Positions 1-5,102 of a stretch of 5,102 bases of DNA are shown here, piece after piece. Origin of the DNA: a virus (Duplodnaviria; Heunggongvirae; Uroviricota; Caudoviricetes); the IMG/VR virus record IMGVR_UViG_2547132272_000019. The stretch is one strand, 5' to 3'. Numbering within the stretch: the first letter of the stretch is position 1; each line of letters starts with the position of its first letter. The notes beneath the pieces were generated by a model. The model did no database searches. It saw only the letters and a list, made by a program, of their open reading frames with translations, and was not told the DNA's origin. The translations under genes were made by a program, and so were the position numbers.

Positions 1-106
1 TCGCAATGACGAGATTTATCGCCGTCAGCGACAGATGAAGGACGTGCTGGATAGCCTTAATAATCTTGCCGACATCCGCGCTTTTCAGGCTGGAGAGTCA
101 GAATGA
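1..106 (+). CDS. 3' end of an upstream gene (C-terminal 34 codons, ...RNDEIYRRQRQMKDVLDSLNNLADIRAFQAGESE*); start lies outside the window; product unknown
   Basis: Open frame from position 2 to a TGA stop at 104-106. The stop overlaps the ATG at 103-105 of the next gene (ATGA), indicating translational coupling in one operon. Confidence 0.5.
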   Translation, partial: RNDEIYRRQRQMKDVLDSLNNLADIRAFQAGESE

Positions 107-816
107 AATGGGAAAAGGCAATTCTGCGCCCGTCAGCCATGAACATTAAATGCTCTGTGGTTTGCCTGCATCCATGGTCAGAAAATACCGGAAACATCAA
201 ACCATCGGGGCGTTATCTCAGCCCCGAAAATGCTGTATCTGCACTTTTACCCTATCTGAAAGAAAACACAGAAAAGGACATTGTGGCGCTGTTATTTTGC
301 GCTCCTTCTGCTGGCGAGTTTTTATCACTCGCCAGGCAATTTTCAGGCGCATTTCCGTTGCCGGAGGTGGGACGAATGTCCCGCATGATCTCCAGCCAGC
401 TTTCACTGGCCATCAGCAGAATGCAAATCCCCGCCAGACCGGCAACATCACTTCCGGAACCGATAATGCTGTCGACACAGACCACTCGCAGCATGTCGCT
501 GGCGGCAACCATTGCACAGGCAGCCACTCCTGCCGCCACATCACCGGAAACACTGTCATCATCACTGCATCAGTTCATGAATGCGAGAGATAAAGCTCTA
601 CAGGAAATCGCTGATCAGCAGGCTGCACTCCGGCAAAAATTTTGCCCGGTGTGGCGCTTTTGCTACAAGGGAGCCCTCAGCCAGGCCGCAGTGCTGATAC
701 AAAAAAACATCCCACACCCTGAGTGGGTTTTTACAGCTGTGATGCTGTTCGTCGGCGATGATCTCTCATCACTAAGGGAGGCACTACATGACCCAGATGA
801 TTGTCCTTGCGCTTGA
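103..816 (+). CDS. hypothetical protein, 237 aa, with a central Ser/Thr/Ala/Pro-rich low-complexity segment; possibly part of a phage-tail-like module
   Basis: ATG 103 overlaps the upstream stop (ATGA). GGAG at 92-95 sits 7 nt upstream. Same strand and coupled with the following genes. No family recognised from the sequence. Confidence 0.55.
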   Translation: MKWEKAILRPSAMNIKCSVVCLHPWSENTGNIKPSGRYLSPENAVSALLPYLKENTEKDIVALLFCAPSAGEFLSLARQFSGAFPLPEVGRMSRMISSQLSLAISRMQIPARPATSLPEPIMLSTQTTRSMSLAATIAQAATPAATSPETLSSSLHQFMNARDKALQEIADQQAALRQKFCPVWRFCYKGALSQAAVLIQKNIPHPEWVFTAVMLFVGDDLSSLREALHDPDDCPCA

Positions 817-1363
817 CGGGGAAGCCATTCTGCTGCGCAACATCACCGTCAGCGCCACCATGCAACTACCGGACAAAGATATGTCCGGACAGTCAACCAG
901 CACCACGAGCGCCCAGCAGGGAAGCAAGGCTAAAGAGCTGCGCGTGTCGGGGGTTATTGATTTTAACGATGAAGCTATTCTGACCCGTATTTTTCAGCTT
1001 GCGGAGGCAACAGAAAGCAATGGCGCGAAAAAAACATATCGCATTGCTAACGCTACCGCGAAGGCAATCAATATGCGACAGGGGGTATTTTCTGGTGGCA
1101 TTGATGCCACGGAACAACAGGGAAAAATGCACTGGCAGGTCACCTTTACTCTCAGGGAAAAATTAAGCGTGCCAGAGAAAGCGTCTGCACGTAGCGGTTC
1201 GCAGAAAACCATCGCCAGACAGCAGACCCAGAACGGTAGCGAACAGGCACCAGACAAAGGCATGAATACGCAAAGTTCGTTCTGGAAAAAAATCAATGAT
1301 GCCGTTGGCTCTGGTCTGGATGCTGTTGGTATCGGGAGCGTGAAAGAGGAAGGGAAAACATGA
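788..1363 (+). CDS. hypothetical protein, 191 aa; possibly part of a phage-tail-like module
   Basis: Strong Shine-Dalgarno AAGGGAGG at about 773-780, 7 nt before ATG 788. The TGA stop at 1361-1363 overlaps the ATG 1360 of the next gene (ATGA). The 29-nt overlap with the previous gene is consistent with an operon. Confidence 0.65.
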   Translation: MTQMIVLALDGEAILLRNITVSATMQLPDKDMSGQSTSTTSAQQGSKAKELRVSGVIDFNDEAILTRIFQLAEATESNGAKKTYRIANATAKAINMRQGVFSGGIDATEQQGKMHWQVTFTLREKLSVPEKASARSGSQKTIARQQTQNGSEQAPDKGMNTQSSFWKKINDAVGSGLDAVGIGSVKEEGKT

Positions 1364-3057
1364 AATTGATACAACGCTGCATGATTAATGGCGAACGGGT
1401 GGAAATTGCCGATATAAACCTTGTTCTTACCCTGAATGCTGCCGGTCGTGGCTTCATTTCTGTTAATAATCTGTCACCAGAAAAAAGCCTTGCCGGCGCA
1501 ATGGTACAAATTGATCTCGGCCGTGACGGTGAAGTCTGGCGCTATTTCTCCGGCTACGTTGAACGCGACCAACCCGCCGAAAATGGTTCGCGCCGCCTTT
1601 TTATCCGTGAAGCAGCTGCTGTGCTGGATTTTGATTTCCCCTGCTCCATGCAACACCCGACGTTGCGGGAGGTGTTAGATAATCTGGGACGACAAAGCGG
1701 CATCGTTTTTATCACCCCGGACGCGGATTATGTCAACACACCAACCCCCTACATCACCCACAGCGGCAGCGGAACGCAGCTACTCAGCCAGCTGGGGCGC
1801 GCATTCAGTATCAGCGATTACGTCTGGCACCCAATGCCGGACGGTTCTGTATTTGTGGGAAGCGCCGCTGATTCACGATTTGCCAGTATTACGATGCCGG
1901 ATATTCCGCAACAGTACGCTCTCGGGCAAAGCGGCGGAAACAGCATCGACATCATGTTCATGGAAACTGTGCGACCGGGCGTGAATCTTCCCGCCGGGCG
2001 TATTACCCGCGTAGCCCTCAACAACGAGAAAATGACTCTGACGTGGGAGCGCCTTACCGTCACGGGCAGCCCTGTCTCCAAATCACCATTACGCAGACAG
2101 ATGGAAACACAGTTCCCGGAACTGGCCAGCGGCACACTACACACCAGGCTGGCGCGCGTCATTGCACCAACGGAATCCGCCACCCTGGGCGATGTGGCCG
2201 ACAGCTTCCGTCCACGCTACGCCGTGGACGTGCAACTGCTCGATGAGGACGGCAACGATAAAAGCGATACGCCTGTTTACCCGGCAGTCCCACTCCCCGT
2301 CCCGATGGCTGGTAGCGAGGCGGGATGTTTTGCCTACCCGCCGGCAGGCACCATCGTGGAAATATCTAACATTGAAGGGCGCCCGGATAAACCTGTTATC
2401 AGGCAAATCTTACCCGCTGGCCATAACCTGCCTGATGTAAAGCCCGGCGAACAACTGCAGCAACAGCGCGCAGAAGTGTTTCAGCGCGTCACGACTGACG
2501 GAAGCTGGCACAGAGAAACAGACCAGCAAATCAGGGAGCAGTCAGCCACCCGCACAATCAACAGTGATGCAGAAGAGCGCACCACAACAACCAGAACAAC
2601 CACAGTACGGGCAAACGACATAACCAGTGTTCTGGGAACCAGCAAGCTGGCGGCAGGACAAATAGAGCACCTTACTACCGGCCATTACGCGATCGCAGCC
2701 AGCGAGCATATCCAGATGGTAGCGCAGGATTTGCTGACTAAACTCAAAGGAGCAATATCCACGATTGAGCAGGACCTGACTGAAAACGTGGGAGGCCGCA
2801 GAATATGCCGGGCGGACGGCGGTCTGAAGTTTACAGCCCCGACAGTATTTATTGGTCGCGGTGGCTCACGGGAAAAATCCGAACTTAATCTGCTGACGTT
2901 GTTGATTGATATTCTGGATCTGATTCAATTGCTGGCCACGCACACAGCAAACCACACCCACAGCAACACTGGCGCACCAATGAACAGCGGCGAACTTGCC
3001 GCAGATGCCCTGCAGGCTACGAGCCTGCGCGAAAAATACGGCGACCTTATCGCCTGA
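1360..3057 (+). CDS. 565-aa protein, putative phage tail / baseplate-hub (P2 gpD 'late control D'-like) protein; family assignment tentative
   Basis: Long ORF with SD GAGGAAGGG upstream and an ATGA overlap with the preceding gene. The N-terminal segment INGERVEIADINLVLTLNAAGRGF matches, from memory, the I-x-GE-x-V-x-I-...-L-x-L-...-RGF pattern of gpD-type tail proteins. Contains a TTTTRTTTV low-complexity stretch and a His-rich C-terminus (HTANHTHSNTG). Followed by an intrinsic terminator. Confidence 0.5.
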   Translation: MKLIQRCMINGERVEIADINLVLTLNAAGRGFISVNNLSPEKSLAGAMVQIDLGRDGEVWRYFSGYVERDQPAENGSRRLFIREAAAVLDFDFPCSMQHPTLREVLDNLGRQSGIVFITPDADYVNTPTPYITHSGSGTQLLSQLGRAFSISDYVWHPMPDGSVFVGSAADSRFASITMPDIPQQYALGQSGGNSIDIMFMETVRPGVNLPAGRITRVALNNEKMTLTWERLTVTGSPVSKSPLRRQMETQFPELASGTLHTRLARVIAPTESATLGDVADSFRPRYAVDVQLLDEDGNDKSDTPVYPAVPLPVPMAGSEAGCFAYPPAGTIVEISNIEGRPDKPVIRQILPAGHNLPDVKPGEQLQQQRAEVFQRVTTDGSWHRETDQQIREQSATRTINSDAEERTTTTRTTTVRANDITSVLGTSKLAAGQIEHLTTGHYAIAASEHIQMVAQDLLTKLKGAISTIEQDLTENVGGRRICRADGGLKFTAPTVFIGRGGSREKSELNLLTLLIDILDLIQLLATHTANHTHSNTGAPMNSGELAADALQATSLREKYGDLIA

Positions 3058-3095
3058 TCACCTGGACATAAAAGCCACATAAACGCCCATCACAC

Positions 3096-3123
3096 AACGC
3101 ACGGCTTCGGCCGTGCGTTTTCA
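3096..3123 (+). terminator. Rho-independent terminator of the + strand operon
   Basis: Perfect 10-bp inverted repeat aacgcacggc (3096-3105) / gccgtgcgtt (3110-3119) with a TTCG tetraloop, followed by a T-run; lies 39 nt after the stop at 3057. Confidence 0.7.
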
Positions 3124-3188
3124 TATCTGCCACCTGATTAATGCGTTCTGCGCGCCATTCTGGCGCTGTATGCGCACACCGCGTAAAC

Positions 3189-3218
3189 GGTGTGACGTAA
3201 AGCGTGAGGTGACGTAAA
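3189..3218. repeat. tandem direct repeat GGTG(T)GACGTAAA, two copies about 19 bp apart; possible protein-binding sites
   Basis: ggtgtgacgtaaa at 3189-3201 and ggtgacgtaaa at 3208-3218; a further CGTAAA at 3182-3187 sits in the loop of a 7-bp hairpin (cacaccg/cggtgtg, 3175-3194). Confidence 0.4.
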
Positions 3219-3324
3219 CCGCGCTACCCCCTCCAACCCGCGGGTTTTGTGTCGAAACACTTTTTCAGTTTTCTGCCGTGCAAAAATGACCGCCAGCCCG
3301 CGCAGCGACTGAGGGAAAAGCGAA

Positions 3325-3583
3325 GATCTGAAATTTCACGCTTTGAAATTTTTTGCAGTTTTCAGCGAGTTTTTTACGATCTCATAAATGGCAGGAGCAA
3401 TGAAACCGCATGATATTAAAAGAGTTTTCATACTTTACGCGAGACAAAAAAACGATCACGAAAGGATCGCATCAAACAACCATCAAACAGCGAAGTCAGA
3501 CGCGGCGCGGCCTGCGTAAAATTGAGAGTCAAAATTAAACTGAAAAAAGGATCAATACCGCGCCTCGATCGCGCATGACGATC
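3325..3583. repeat. GATC-dense, AT-rich block (7 Dam sites in about 260 bp) with short direct repeats
   Basis: GATC at 3325, 3378, 3454, 3465, 3550, 3567 and 3580, versus about 8 in the remaining ~4.8 kb. Includes catcaaaca x2 (3469-3491), an imperfect repeat ttttt(g)cagttttc (3262-3282 vs 3350-3370), and an A7 run plus 5-bp hairpin at 3446-3469. Confidence 0.5.
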
Positions 3584-3600
3584 TATGCAGCAACAGGACG

Positions 3601-3623
3601 AAAAAAACCGGCGCGAACGCCGG
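3601..3623 (-). terminator. Rho-independent terminator on the - strand
   Basis: GC-rich 6-bp stem ccggcg (3608-3613) / cgccgg (3618-3623) with a CGAA loop. On the - strand it is followed by U7 (the + strand A-run at 3601-3607); on the + strand there is no U-tail. Confidence 0.55.
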
Positions 3624-3664
3624 CGGAAGCATGTATCAAATGCGTGACTGAATAATGTCTGCGG
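3601..3664 (-). ncRNA. candidate ~60-nt small RNA, divergent from the hok promoter; function unknown
   Basis: A - strand promoter-like pair lies about 7 nt upstream of the predicted start, and the strong - strand terminator at 3601-3623 lies about 60 nt downstream. No ORF with an RBS in between. Confidence 0.35.
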
Positions 3665-3670
3665 TCGGGA

Positions 3671-3700
3671 ATTTTACATCAGAAGGCTGATAAGTCTCAA
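3671..3700 (-). promoter_or_regulatory. sigma70-like promoter for the candidate sRNA
   Basis: Read on the - strand: -35 TTGAGA (+ strand 3695-3700), 18-bp spacer, -10 TAAAAT (+ strand 3671-3676). Back-to-back with the hok promoter. Confidence 0.35.
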
Positions 3701-3704
3701 CGGA

Positions 3705-3734
3705 TTGAAACAAGGGAAAAAACCAGGCTAGAAT
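3705..3734 (+). promoter_or_regulatory. putative hok mRNA promoter
   Basis: -35 TTGAAA (3705-3710), 18-bp spacer, -10 TAGAAT (3729-3734). Predicted start near 3741 coincides with the 5' element that pairs with the mRNA 3' end. Confidence 0.4.
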
Positions 3735-3784
3735 TCGCGCGGGTGCCTTTCGGCTGATGGCTGGAGGGAATACCCGAAGGCCGA

Positions 3785-3970
3785 ATGTGGAAAGGCCCCG
3801 AGTCAACTTTAACGTTAACCCGAGGCCCTAGCCATACAACCTTCGCAAGTCGTAGGTTAGCGCCTCCCCGAAAAAGGAGCAAGCGCTATGTCGCAAAAAT
3901 CGCTTACGGCCATTACGTTCTGCGTAACGGCAATCCTCATCATCTGGATGCTACACGGTTCACTGTGTGA
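3785..3970 (+). CDS. mok-like overlapping reading frame (61 codons) for translational coupling to hok
   Basis: ATG 3785 preceded by GAAGG (3776-3780). The frame overlaps the hok start and ends inside hok in a different frame, matching hok/mok architecture. No independent homology recognised. Confidence 0.35.
   Translation: MWKGPESTLTLTRGPSHTTFASRRLAPPRKRSKRYVAKIAYGHYVLRNGNPHHLDATRFTV
3786..3847 (-). ncRNA. Sok-like cis-antisense antitoxin RNA (about 60 nt); boundaries approximate
   Basis: Expected by hok/sok architecture. A - strand promoter candidate overlaps the hok SD. The extended hairpin at 3794-3827 is fully paired only on the - strand transcript (G-U wobbles there are C/A mismatches on the + strand) and is followed by UUU on the - strand. 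Confidence 0.3.
3854..3882 (-). promoter_or_regulatory. candidate Sok promoter
   Basis: Read on the - strand: -35 TTGCTC (+ strand 3877-3882), 17-bp spacer, -10 TAACCT (+ strand 3854-3859). It overlaps the hok SD region. An alternative pair is -35 TTGTAT (3834-3839) with -10 TAACGT (3812-3817). Confidence 0.25.
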
Positions 3971-4028
3971 GATACGGATGAGCTTCTGGGGAGCGGAGTT
4001 TGCGGCGTTCTTACAATGTAGACAGTAA
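3888..4028 (+). CDS. hok: Hok/Gef-family type I toxin, 46 aa (MSQKSLTAITFCVTAILIIWMLHGSLCEIRMSFWGAEFAAFLQCRQ); specific paralog not determined
   Basis: AAGGAG at 3874-3879, 8 nt before ATG 3888. N-terminal hydrophobic transmembrane stretch, then the Hok hallmark SLCEIR and a C-terminal E-x-AAF-L motif (compare Hok ...[22 protein letters not shown]). The ORF is below the size cut-off of the supplied track. Confidence 0.75.
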   Translation: MSQKSLTAITFCVTAILIIWMLHGSLCEIRMSFWGAEFAAFLQCRQ

Positions 4029-4114
4029 GAAAACCGCGACGGGGAAGGCAACTTCCCCGTCAATCGGTTGCCAGGGTAAGGCCGATAAGGCACCCTATAC
4101 ACATCCCAAAGCAG

Positions 4115-4151
4115 AAACCCGCAGCGTAAAACTGCGGGTTTTCTTTTTCTT
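4115..4151. terminator. bidirectional intrinsic terminator shared by the hok mRNA (+) and the convergent yidD-like operon (-)
   Basis: 10-bp stem aaacccgcag (4115-4124) / ctgcgggttt (4132-4141) with loop CGTAAAA. On the + strand it is followed by TCTTTTTCTT; on the - strand by CUGCUUUG. It lies 7 nt from the yidD-like stop at 4158. Confidence 0.65.
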
Positions 4152-4157
4152 ACGCGC

Positions 4158-4391
4158 TCACGATTTGCGACATTTACAAATATGAGGAGGGTAATCTGCA
4201 CCACCATTAGGCGGACGACAGCGATAAATCCGGCTCAATCCTAATCGCCAGCCTTCAAAAAAGCCATAGCGCCTTATTGACACCAAAGTGTAAGCCGAAC
4301 AGCTTGGAGTATAACGACATCTGTTACGAATGCTGGCTGGCGCATGAGCACGATAATAAAGAATCAGACGTATACTAAGCCATTTAAGCAT
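4158..4391 (-). CDS. YidD-family protein (PF01809, putative membrane protein insertion efficiency factor paralog), 77 aa
   Basis: Translation contains the YidD signature ...RCRYTPSCSAY...GW.L...RI.RC.P...GG.D.P and aligns well with E. coli YidD as recalled from memory. Its start overlaps the stop of the upstream 80-aa gene by 8 nt. Confidence 0.7.
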   Translation of the reverse strand: MLKWLSIRLILYYRAHAPASIRNRCRYTPSCSAYTLVSIRRYGFFEGWRLGLSRIYRCRPPNGGADYPPHICKCRKS

Positions 4392-4626
4392 CTGATACTT
4401 TTTTTCTAAAAGTAATCACATAGTATTGAAAAAACTGCGCCTTTCCGCCACCGAAACACCCCGGCTGCTCTTCTATACCAATCGTATCAACCCGTTGAAA
4501 TTCCCAGCCATCCGCCGCCTGTTCATTAACAACATTCTGAAGATATGCAGCAGCTACCCCCGCTTTATTATCTTTTGCCTTTACAGAAATATTCGGCGGC
4601 ACCTGAATCATTTTATAGGTATACAT
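4384..4626 (-). CDS. small conserved hypothetical protein, 80 aa (possibly DUF4177-like)
   Basis: Strong SD AAGGAG 8 nt upstream of ATG 4626. Translationally coupled to the yidD-like gene. Compact globular-looking sequence with a GWE motif; the family call is from memory only. Confidence 0.55.
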   Translation of the reverse strand: MYTYKMIQVPPNISVKAKDNKAGVAAAYLQNVVNEQAADGWEFQRVDTIGIEEQPGCFGGGKAQFFQYYVITFRKKVSDA

Positions 4627-4772
4627 TACCTGAGCTCCTTTAATAAAAAAGACAGTAATAAACGCCCTAAAACAGCCCGCACCTCACGATGCGAGCATTA
4701 GATCACTATGGCAATATGTGGACAACGCGAAAAATAATCCATTATTTTTCATTGCATTACAGCAGTTTTCGT

Positions 4773-4788
4773 GCCACCCGAAGGTGGC
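4773..4788. other. GC-rich stem-loop in the ytfP / downstream-gene intergenic region
   Basis: gccacc (4773-4778) / ggtggc (4783-4788) with a CGAA loop, just after the ytfP stop. No U-tail on the - strand, so it is not a canonical ytfP terminator; it may be an RNA-stability or attenuator element. Confidence 0.3.
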
Positions 4789-4797
4789 GTGTTTATA

Positions 4798-5102
4798 TTA
4801 TGACTTATCCCTGTCTAACCAGTCGCCGCTTTCAATCAGCGTTAATCCATCGACGGGTCGTTGATAAACGTACATCCATGCACTCCCGTACGGCGTCTGA
4901 ATCAACTGGCGCGCGTATTCACCGCCCCTGGTGCGCAAGGCATCAAGTTCGGCCAGCGTGGCGTTGTCAATACGATAAACTTCACCGTGTACCGTTCCGT
5001 TTCCCGGAACTGCGCCTGGATAGTGGCCCAGGCTATACAACTGGTAGTTATCGATACTGAAATCGCCCAGCAACTGGGCATTGGTCATCCAGTGGCTGGG
5101 GG
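4798..5102 (-). CDS. ytfP: gamma-glutamylcyclotransferase-family (AIG2/GGCT-like) protein YtfP, 3' portion; start lies beyond the window end
   Basis: Translation ...SHWMTNAQLLGDFSIDNYQLYSLGHYPGAVPGNGTVHGEVYRIDNATLAELDALRTRGGEYARQLIQTPYGSAWMYVYQRPVDGLTLIESGDWLDRDKS* matches E. coli YtfP as recalled from memory. The frame stays open to the window edge upstream of the track's Met at 5088. Confidence 0.8.
   Translation of the reverse strand, partial: PSHWMTNAQLLGDFSIDNYQLYSLGHYPGAVPGNGTVHGEVYRIDNATLAELDALRTRGGEYARQLIQTPYGSAWMYVYQRPVDGLTLIESGDWLDRDKS

Follow-up and report, generated by a model that had tools for sequence, protein, structure and literature searches.

The DNA analysed here (the window, a whole contig of 5102 bp) is very probably the right-hand end of a prophage, a temperate myovirus of the P2/HP1 family (Peduoviridae) that carries HP1-type tail genes and lies beside ytfP. 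Its coding block is the tail-tip block of an ordinary prophage of this family and not a new system: one ordinary prophage end accounts for what the initial annotation had singled out, from the gene coupling and the over-long "gpD" with its His-rich tail to the stretch without ORFs and the toxin-antitoxin (TA) locus. The coupling itself was borne out, with successive ATGA, 29-nt and ATGA overlaps between plus-strand genes and a strong terminator behind them. What had been counted as a four-gene operon is instead a gene fragment followed by three complete genes, and the same-strand run extends upstream through at least nine further tail genes in a longer, 100% identical contig. The fragment (positions 2-106, + strand) comprises the last 34 codons of a DUF4376 gene, in a frame that is open from the window start to a TGA at 104-106 and is cut by the contig end; the full gene encodes a tail-fibre-associated protein of 191 aa and is annotated as DUF4376 both in Escherichia coli AJ1 and in the longer contig (L016). 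The three complete genes, all on the + strand, encode homologues of HP1 orf33 (gene 1, 103-816, 237 aa), orf34 (gene 2, 788-1363, 191 aa) and orf35 (gene 3, 1360-3057, 565 aa). The ATG of gene 1 (103-105) overlaps the DUF4376 stop as ATGA; gene 2 begins within gene 1 (29-nt overlap), with AAGGGAGG at 774-781, six nt 5' of its ATG; and gene 3 starts inside the second ATGA overlap (1360-1363). All three are intact, with dN/dS values of 0.03-0.23, which indicates that they are functional. The block is closed by a predicted Rho-independent terminator of the late (tail) operon (3096-3119, + strand), a 10-bp stem with a UUCG loop followed by UUUU; its folding energy is -18.7 kcal/mol (z = -6.9; none of 200 shuffles was equally stable). 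This hairpin is missing from the list returned by a simple consensus scan, and K139 has an annotated terminator (T39) at the equivalent place.

The phage-tail origin of the module, suspected from the start, is supported by its homology to HP1 orf33-orf35 together with the tail genes that precede it in L016, a metagenomic contig 100% identical to window positions 1-5098. Upstream of the window, L016 encodes DUF6890, a tape measure protein, DUF2590, Baseplate_J, fibres, Caudo_TAP and DUF4376; with HP1 homology and tail-family matches both found, the proteins do not belong to some family unrelated to phage tails. The head and early genes are documented by a second copy, 96.9% identical, which in E. 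coli AJ1 forms an entire prophage of 34 kb, with integrase at one end and hok at the other; portal, terminase, scaffold, capsid, lysis, integrase, repressor, Cox, replication, sheath and tube genes are present in that copy, and the upstream evidence in the identical contig L016 consists of tail genes. The element is carried by 22 of 5426 complete E. coli genomes, at different loci, and is thus not part of a universally conserved core genome.

The window itself holds tail-tip genes only, as would the end of a headless tail cluster, whether left by a defective prophage or domesticated as a tailocin (a tail-only bacteriocin particle), and a decayed P2-like remnant lies at the same ytfP site in strain CFSAN051542. 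We nevertheless regard this reading as improbable, and the remnant status proposed initially is not upheld. The AJ1 copy has portal, terminase, scaffold, capsid and integrase genes and is no tailocin; L016 has about 30.3 kb ahead of the window start, in agreement with the 30.2 kb that separate the integrase gene from the equivalent point in AJ1, and includes a full tail module; a cos-like site is kept; and the three genes are intact and under purifying selection (dN/dS 0.23 or less).

The identity of gene 3 is central to this reading. Its product is assigned to PHROG 2258 ("baseplate protein", 4.8e-232) and matches HP1 orf35 in BLASTP (7e-129, 37% identity); homologues are present in 75 phage records, and identity to any isolated phage is at most 47-50%. 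With the model of the full-length protein, Foldseek retrieved the spikes of AlgoCIS, PVC (Pvc8), Afp (Afp8) and T6SS VgrG (E 5.6e-16 to 1.5e-13), and with its N-terminal part the hub proteins Mu gp44 (2e-9), the MuSo2 tail protein (3e-9), the pyocin R2 hub (7e-5) and T4 gp27 (8e-5). It is from the full-length matches to VgrG, Pvc8 and Afp8 that the protein, as modelled, is read as a gpD-like hub fused to a gpV-like spike, and not as an oversized gpD. Its approximate predicted domains are a gp27/gpD-like hub (aa 1-250), an OB fold of the gp5/gpV/VgrG kind (aa 262-350), a Thr-rich and presumably trimeric beta-helix (aa 350-440), a lineage-variable segment (aa 440-505) and an apex (aa 511-560) with an invariant H532-x-H534. 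The AF2 monomer model has a mean pLDDT of 66.7, with most of the N-terminal 250 residues at 74-94 and residues 353-451 below 50; an intertwined trimer is expected, and the geometry of beta-helix and apex in a monomer model is only tentative. The resemblance to gpD noted earlier at the N-terminus thus holds at the level of the fold, in the Foldseek matches to hubs, and fails by sequence: Phage_GPD gave no match at E<=1, and hhalign paired the gene 3 family profile with P2 gpD at a probability of 0.3%. Sequence searches of the PDB with each of the three proteins gave nothing meaningful, and the gene 3 family profile produced only weak PDB matches in the OB region, to VgrG1 and Pvc8. The OB fold is covered by TIGR01646 (aa 264-364) and weakly by Pfam Phage_base_V (aa 310-347, E 0.02, below the cut-off). 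In the AJ1 prophage no separate gpV-like gene is annotated; hub and spike parts lie in one 565-aa chain.

The extra length and unusual segments, first viewed as an oddity, correspond to the fused spike, with its OB fold, beta-helix region and HxH apex. The composition runs are genuine (TTTTRTTTV at aa 408-416, THTANHTHSN at aa 526-535), and the second contains the two apex histidines, H532 and H534, which do not vary among 33 homologues (48-95% identity) and correspond to HTH of HP1 orf35 in the alignment. In P2 gpV, H197 and H199 form an iron cage, and HxH is said to be diagnostic of spike apex domains (bioRxiv 10.1101/2023.02.25.529910). By its sequence, the "His-rich" segment of gene 3 is a putative HxH iron histidine-cage motif as in P2 gpV. 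The surrounding apex is predicted to form a hairpin of helix, HxH loop and helix, whereas the gpV apex is small and beta-rich.

Given that VgrG, Pvc8 and Afp8 are the best structural matches of gene 3, and that PGAP names the AJ1 orthologue "type VI secretion system Vgr family protein", the 565-aa protein could be taken for an orphan T6SS VgrG or eCIS spike, with the small upstream genes as adaptor or effector partners. This is very improbable: scores against the VgrG models fall far under their cut-offs (TIGR03361, 17.3 bits against 186; TIGR01646, 20.3 bits against 122). T6SS or eCIS neighbours (Hcp, TssBC, TssK and others) are absent, and phage tail genes, hok and ytfP-tamB stand in their place, with gene 3 in a phage late operon between fibre genes and cos. 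In 75 sequenced phages an orthologue closes the late genes, and an HxH apex occupies the position where VgrG typically has a PAAR-binding blunt end. Reading gene 3 as the hub-spike of a phage tail also corrects two misleading database names of this protein, "T6SS Vgr family protein" and "head completion protein".

The two proteins encoded upstream of gene 3 had been described as having no recognisable family, which proved incorrect for both. Gene 2 belongs to Pfam PF25759 (HP1_ORF34, 8.3e-54) and PHROG 1398 (5.9e-65), and matches HP1 orf34 in BLASTP (3e-38, 46% identity); its dN/dS is 0.03-0.09, and it goes by the name "baseplate complex protein". Because it adjoins the hub gene immediately on the 5' side, its position suggests a gpU-like tube-initiator role. 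In hhalign the gene 2 family and P2 gpU were paired at a probability of 0.1%, and seven homologues of gene 2, scanned against Pfam at E<=10, gave PF25759 alone, with no GpU match; overall, these proteins showed no sequence-level link to P2 gpD, gpV or gpU. Gene 1 falls into PHROGs 1677 and 31292 and matches HP1 orf33 (BLASTP 4e-19, 26% identity); its identity to any isolated phage is only 20-30%, and its model found no fold match in PDB or BFVD. It is conserved among HP1-like phages and presumably a baseplate or tail-assembly component, and it alone of the three proteins has been given neither a fold nor a role. Both it and the orf34-like protein are baseplate candidates.

Beyond the terminator the window reads as the end of a phage genome followed by the prophage-chromosome boundary. 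A cos (packaging and cleavage) region is predicted at 3207-3262, where a MAFFT alignment to phage genome ends matches the final 30-45 nt before the linear ends of K139, phiO18P (annotated cosR), ESSI-2 and HP1. This block lies about 185 nt past the gene 3 stop, compared with 174-215 nt in those HP1-like phages, and cleavage is predicted to fall between 3225 and 3250. In HP1-like phages cos adjoins attP (PMC2771037). The short conserved block was revealed by the MAFFT alignment alone: BLAST of 3058-3720 against the P2 cos region and the end-leading regions of HP1, K139, phiO18P and ESSI-2 gave nothing significant, and 3058-3712 had no match in the phage collection. Non-coding prophage backbone follows (3263-3553), common to a sibling prophage (L017) that matches the window at 99.2% identity as far as 3553 and is unrelated beyond. 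The "ORF-free region" that the operon was said to face holds the predicted cos site, and 3263-3553 contains no convincing ORFs.

Between the backbone and the chromosome lies a cargo slot (3554-4148, + strand) with a hok/sok type I toxin-antitoxin, recognised by HOK_GEF and by the Rfam sok family; the TA locus reported near the end of the operon is thus present. It consists of sok (3741-3901; Rfam 36.7 bits, E 9e-6, below the gathering score of 59), a mok-like ORF (3785-3970) and hok (3888-4028; Pfam HOK_GEF 30 bits against a cut-off of 22), and shares 82-89% identity with hok/mok loci annotated in P88-like and Stx phages. The slot also contains a terminator-like hairpin (3607-3624) and further hairpins at 4037-4062 and 4114-4142; an Rfam scan of the window found no family besides sok. 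The right prophage-chromosome junction is placed at about 4142-4148, the point beyond which prophage copies from other chromosomal sites are no longer homologous, in agreement with the earlier proposal that a prophage end abuts the ytfP region. Past it, ytfP is present (Pfam GGACT), with ytfP-tamB as the neighbours. No tRNA was found at the right junction. Neither attL nor an att core could be located: the two prophage ends share no direct repeat of more than 9 nt, and a candidate core at the 4114-4142 hairpin was rejected, since the attL side of the AJ1 prophage lacks it. In strain CFSAN051542, the decayed remnant at this ytfP site comprises sheath, tube, a truncated gpD, ogr and hok.

Cargo in the slot between cos and attR can be exchanged: the sibling prophage carries a defence-candidate ATPase (HEC-04) there instead, with an unchanged tail block. 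That the block adjoins such a slot, with a toxin-antitoxin here and a defence candidate in the sibling, and that gene 1 has no known fold or function, are what could be said for a new non-structural system, for example a defence or conflict module made from tail parts and linked to hok/sok. We consider this scarcely credible, and the initial suggestions of an "uncharacterised system" or a "repurposed tail-like module" give way to a block of HP1-family late tail genes. The cargo changes and the block stays constant; late genes of HP1-like phages that look essential correspond to the block in both sequence and order, and in these phages the cargo is different or lacking; and no other hub or spike gene occurs in the prophage (AJ1), therefore the block must supply both.

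Taking the window as a prophage end, we propose the following arrangement of the tail tip. The genes at 103-3057 are the last three of a long late operon ordered as tape measure, gpW-like, gpJ, gpI, two fibre sets, DUF4376 and the orf33-, orf34- and orf35-like genes. The gene 3 product, probably a trimer, would form the baseplate centre: its N-terminal gp27/gpD-like hub would dock on the tube, the OB fold and beta-helical region would make up a rigid spike, and the C-terminal apex would hold a His cage of three HxH motifs, probably iron-loaded. This apex would be the tip driven through the host outer membrane upon sheath contraction, one gene 3 chain doing the job of P2 gpD plus gpV. The orf34-like protein would be a baseplate component, by its position most likely a gpU-like link between tube and hub, and the orf33-like protein a conserved partner. 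Translational coupling may hold the three products in proportion, and the terminator would end the late transcript ahead of cos, the hok/sok cargo slot and attR. More speculatively, the HP1-type baseplate centre might differ from that of P2 in two ways at once, (i), a helical-hairpin HxH apex, and (ii), a novel orf33-like component; as a joint claim this is possible but doubtful. If true, the gene 3 trimer would end in a six-helix bundle with metal at its tip rather than in a small beta-rich gpV apex, the orf33-like protein would stand in for missing gpX and gpU functions, and, among phages, the HP1-type lineage would come closest to the fused VgrG of secretion systems.

The closest known systems are the HP1-like phages, in which the equivalent genes are HP1 orf33-orf35, those of HP2, K139 orf37-39, phiO18P 44-46 and ESSI-2 gp05/gp03/gp01. 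As in HP1, K139, phiO18P and ESSI-2, the order is fibre, fibre assembly, orf33-, orf34- and orf35-like genes, terminator and genome end, and as in the HP1 group the gene starts overlap and the block closes the late operon, followed by the terminator and the cos end. Unlike in HP1, the block is here joined to P2-type early and head genes, two fibre sets and a DUF4376 gene, and hok/sok cargo lies between cos and attR. The P2 baseplate contains 3 gpD, 6 gpU, 6 gpX and a gpV trimer (bioRxiv 10.64898/2026.09.14.750843). The likeness to gpD and gpV lies in a gp27-like hub fold, an OB fold, a spike and an HxH apex, and a small gene sits immediately 5' of the hub gene and overlaps it, in the place of U before D. 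There are nonetheless clear differences: one polypeptide (565 aa) replaces two (387 and 211 aa), the hub-spike gene follows the fibre genes and not the tape measure gene, and 31 residues follow HxH as against 12 in gpV, in a larger apex that is predicted to be helical. Mu shares the simple myovirus type of baseplate, and its gp44 hub is matched in fold (1wru, 9ki1), but gp44 and the gp45 spike are separate proteins in another gene order. T6SS VgrG and the eCIS proteins Pvc8 and Afp8, the best structural matches, share the same fused layout of hub, OB fold and beta-helix; gene 3 differs from VgrG in being phage-encoded and in having its own HxH apex rather than a separate PAAR tip protein. HP1-like phages thus carry hub and spike as one VgrG-like chain.

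The coupled genes at the left of the window are homologues of phage late genes. A DUF4376 gene, inside which the window starts, enters at the left edge on the + strand and stops at 104-106, in an ATGA overlap with the start of gene 1 (103-816, +, 237 aa; orf33-like). Gene 2 (788-1363, +, 191 aa; orf34-like) overlaps gene 1 by 29 nt and has AAGGGAGG six nt 5' of its ATG, and another ATGA joins its end to the start of gene 3 (1360-3057, +, 565 aa; orf35-like); a + strand terminator hairpin follows (3096-3119; 10-bp stem, UUCG loop, then UUUU; -18.7 kcal/mol, z = -6.9 against shuffles). The initial annotation had located and described these overlaps, the motif upstream of gene 2 and the terminator accurately, but it saw no recognisable family in the two upstream proteins. 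Gene 2 is in fact included in Pfam PF25759, "HP1 ORF34 baseplate complex protein" (8e-54), and matches PHROG 1398, while gene 1 matches PHROGs 31292 and 1677, all three with function-less annotations; gene 3 matches PHROG 2258, "baseplate protein" (5e-232). Against HP1 itself, gene 1 aligns with orf33 over its full length (E 4e-19, 26% identity), gene 2 with orf34 (E 3e-38, 46%) and gene 3 with orf35 (E 7e-129, 37%). By tblastn, 75 phage records match gene 3, all of them P2/HP1-family myoviruses, with hosts in Haemophilus, Pasteurella, Vibrio, Aeromonas, Pseudomonas, Cronobacter, Salmonella, Yersinia and Escherichia. HP1, ESSI-2, K139 and phiO18P share the order of the window (fibre, fibre assembly, orf33-like, orf34-like, orf35-like, terminator), so the supposed operon of four genes is really the conserved distal part of the late operon of a phage. 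The tail-tip module is an ordinary prophage module; its proteins are no more than ~50% identical to those of any isolated phage, and RefSeq genomes already carry and annotate it.

The window is one entire short assembly contig (5102 bp; AEJW01000251.1, GCA_000208465.2) that ends inside ytfP. A 53-kb metagenome contig is 100% identical to window 1-5098; bases 5099-5102 have no match in this otherwise identical sequence. Upstream, on the same strand, it carries DUF6890, tape measure, DUF2590 (gpW-like), Baseplate_J and a gpI-sized gene, as well as fibre, Caudo_TAP, second fibre and DUF4376 genes; downstream lie ytfP, tamB, tamA and msrA. The copy in E. coli AJ1 (96.9% identical) forms the right end of a complete ~34-kb prophage with (i) integrase, repressor, Cox, replication endonuclease and ogr, (ii) portal, terminase, scaffold, P2-family capsid and head completion genes, and (iii) sheath (DUF2586), tube, holin, endolysin, the same tail genes as the 53-kb contig, and hok. 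The AJ1 prophage also encodes ParM and a partition/stability protein beside its P2-type integrase and replication endonuclease (L004 15189-16467), plasmid-type segregation machinery in an integrating phage.

The initial annotation was right in what it observed and partly right in its interpretation: the phage-tail module stands, and its suggestion that the element is a tailocin or a decayed remnant seems very improbable. Everything readable argues against this suggestion, since ~30.3 kb lies left of the window start in the 53-kb contig, matching the 30.2 kb from the AJ1 integrase gene to the same point, and the genes are intact and selected: dN/dS against the E. albertii (91.6% identical) and AJ1 copies is 0.13-0.23 for gene 1, 0.03-0.09 for gene 2 and 0.08-0.10 for gene 3, values which indicate that selection maintains all three. 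Nor is the operon universally conserved core genome; the element is mobile: of 5426 complete E. coli genomes only 22 carry it, and in these it occupies several chromosomal positions. A new non-structural system is likewise not supported, the genes being homologues of phage late genes.

Past the terminator, window 3207-3262 contains GTGACGTAAA twice, then CCGCGCTACCCCCTCCAACCCGCGGGTTTTG, and can be aligned to the last 30-45 nt leading up to the genome ends of K139, phiO18P (annotated cosR), ESSI-2 and HP1. The block lies ~185 nt past the gene 3 stop, a distance shared with these four phages, whose linear genomes end 174-215 nt past the last late gene. In HP1-like phages cos adjoins attP, not the portal gene (PMC2771037). 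Taken together, alignment, distance and position make 3207-3262 the probable prophage cos site. The ~290 bp that follow (3263-3553) belong to the conserved prophage sequence (92% identity to both the AJ1 and the E. albertii copy) and contain no convincing ORF; neither Rfam nor the phage collection gave a match. In an identical contig, a minus-strand gene spanning 3336-3632 was called by one gene finder. A sibling prophage (L017), inserted at another chromosomal site near raiA/bamD/rluD/clpB, is 99.2% identical to the window until 3553 and then carries different cargo (L017 3639-7232: a YafO-like toxin, a PADLOC HEC-04 ATPase (6e-204) and a methyltransferase fragment), where the window carries hok/sok. 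Judged from these sequences, the cos-to-attR segment 3554-4148 behaves as a swappable cargo slot. Predicted cos and slot explain in part the region that had been noted as ORF-free, and the toxin-antitoxin locus and ytfP reported to its right are present (HOK_GEF in Pfam, sok in Rfam, GGACT for ytfP); sok scores E 9e-6, under the gathering score, and P88-like and Stx phages have hok/sok loci 82-89% identical to this one.

Homology with prophage copies at other sites stops at 4142-4148, at a terminator-like hairpin, which marks the right prophage-chromosome junction. No att core was identified at the prophage ends and no tRNA at this junction. YidD-like (77 aa) and DUF4177 (80 aa) genes (4158-4626, - strand) adjoin ytfP; only 20 of the 5426 complete E. 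coli genomes have them, with 91% identity. In strain CFSAN051542 this position beside ytfP is taken by the decayed remains of a P2-like element (sheath, tube, truncated gpD, ogr), after which comes the same Hok protein; P2-family prophages thus appear to insert next to ytfP recurrently.

The P2 baseplate centre comprises 3 gpD, 6 gpU (tube initiator), 6 gpX (LysM glue) and a gpV trimer (bioRxiv 10.64898/2026.09.14.750843). No gpU or gpX is recognisable in the HP1-type prophage. In P2, U precedes D, and gene 2 likewise lies immediately before the hub gene and overlaps it; by analogy, we infer that it may be a gpU-like tube-to-hub link. Comparison of gene 2 with gpU found no sequence support. 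Gene 1 evolves faster than genes 2 and 3 (dN/dS up to 0.23) and shares 20-30% identity with homologues in isolated HP1-like phages; neither PDB nor BFVD contains a significant structural neighbour of its moderately confident AF2 model (pTM 0.67), and on this model the orf33-like protein is a fold orphan.

Homologues of gene 3 are named inconsistently: 'type VI secretion system Vgr family protein' (E. coli AJ1), 'head completion protein' (phage SW5), 'baseplate protein', 'cell puncturing device' (ACA1), 'phage baseplate assembly protein V' and, most commonly, 'hypothetical protein'. The orphan T6SS VgrG implied by the PGAP name in AJ1 was rejected: VgrG models score far under cut-offs, there is no T6SS context and orthologues lie in phage genomes. 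An AF2 model made from 33 homologues (mean pLDDT 66.7; residues 1-250 confident, the rest moderate) gave full-length Foldseek matches in PDB to hub-spike proteins of contractile injection systems: AlgoCIS spike (5.6e-16), PVC central spike (7.7e-16), Salmonella VgrS (3e-15), Anabaena CIS (4.9e-15), P. aeruginosa VgrG1 (1.5e-14) and Afp baseplate (1.5e-13). The N-terminus also matches stand-alone phage hubs (Mu gp44, MuSo2 43-kDa protein, E217, pyocin R2 hub, T4 gp27), and the gpD-like N-terminus proposed initially thus holds at the level of fold; by sequence it fails, with no match to Pfam Phage_GPD or, by hhalign, to P2 gpD. A gp5/VgrG OB fold lies at ~aa 262-350 (weak sequence signals), followed by a Thr-rich segment, where the model is unreliable (pLDDT below 50, 353-451), in the position occupied in VgrG and gpV by the intertwined beta-helix. 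Further on, within the His-rich segment, H532-T-H534 is invariant in 33/33 homologues and aligns with the HTH of HP1 orf35. In P2 gpV, which ends LHTHKHPGD..., an iron ion sits in an octahedral cage built from three copies of H197-x-H199, and spike apex domains are recognised by an HxH close to the C-terminus (bioRxiv 10.1101/2023.02.25.529910).

The modelled gene 3 product is best described as the fusion of a gpD-like hub with a gpV-like spike. The low-complexity and His-rich segments noticed initially are real (Thr-rich run, THTANHTHSN); rather than oddities of an oversized gpD, they and the length are explained by this fusion. The AJ1 prophage annotation contains no hub or spike gene besides the gene 3 orthologue, so gene 3 must supply both. 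Around the invariant HxH, aa 511-560 are predicted as a helix, loop, helix hairpin (pLDDT mostly 62-82), whereas the gpV apex is small and beta-rich; the helical apex could be an artefact of monomer modelling or a different apex architecture. P2 keeps hub and spike as separate proteins of 387 and 211 aa, whereas gene 3 encodes one 565-aa chain.
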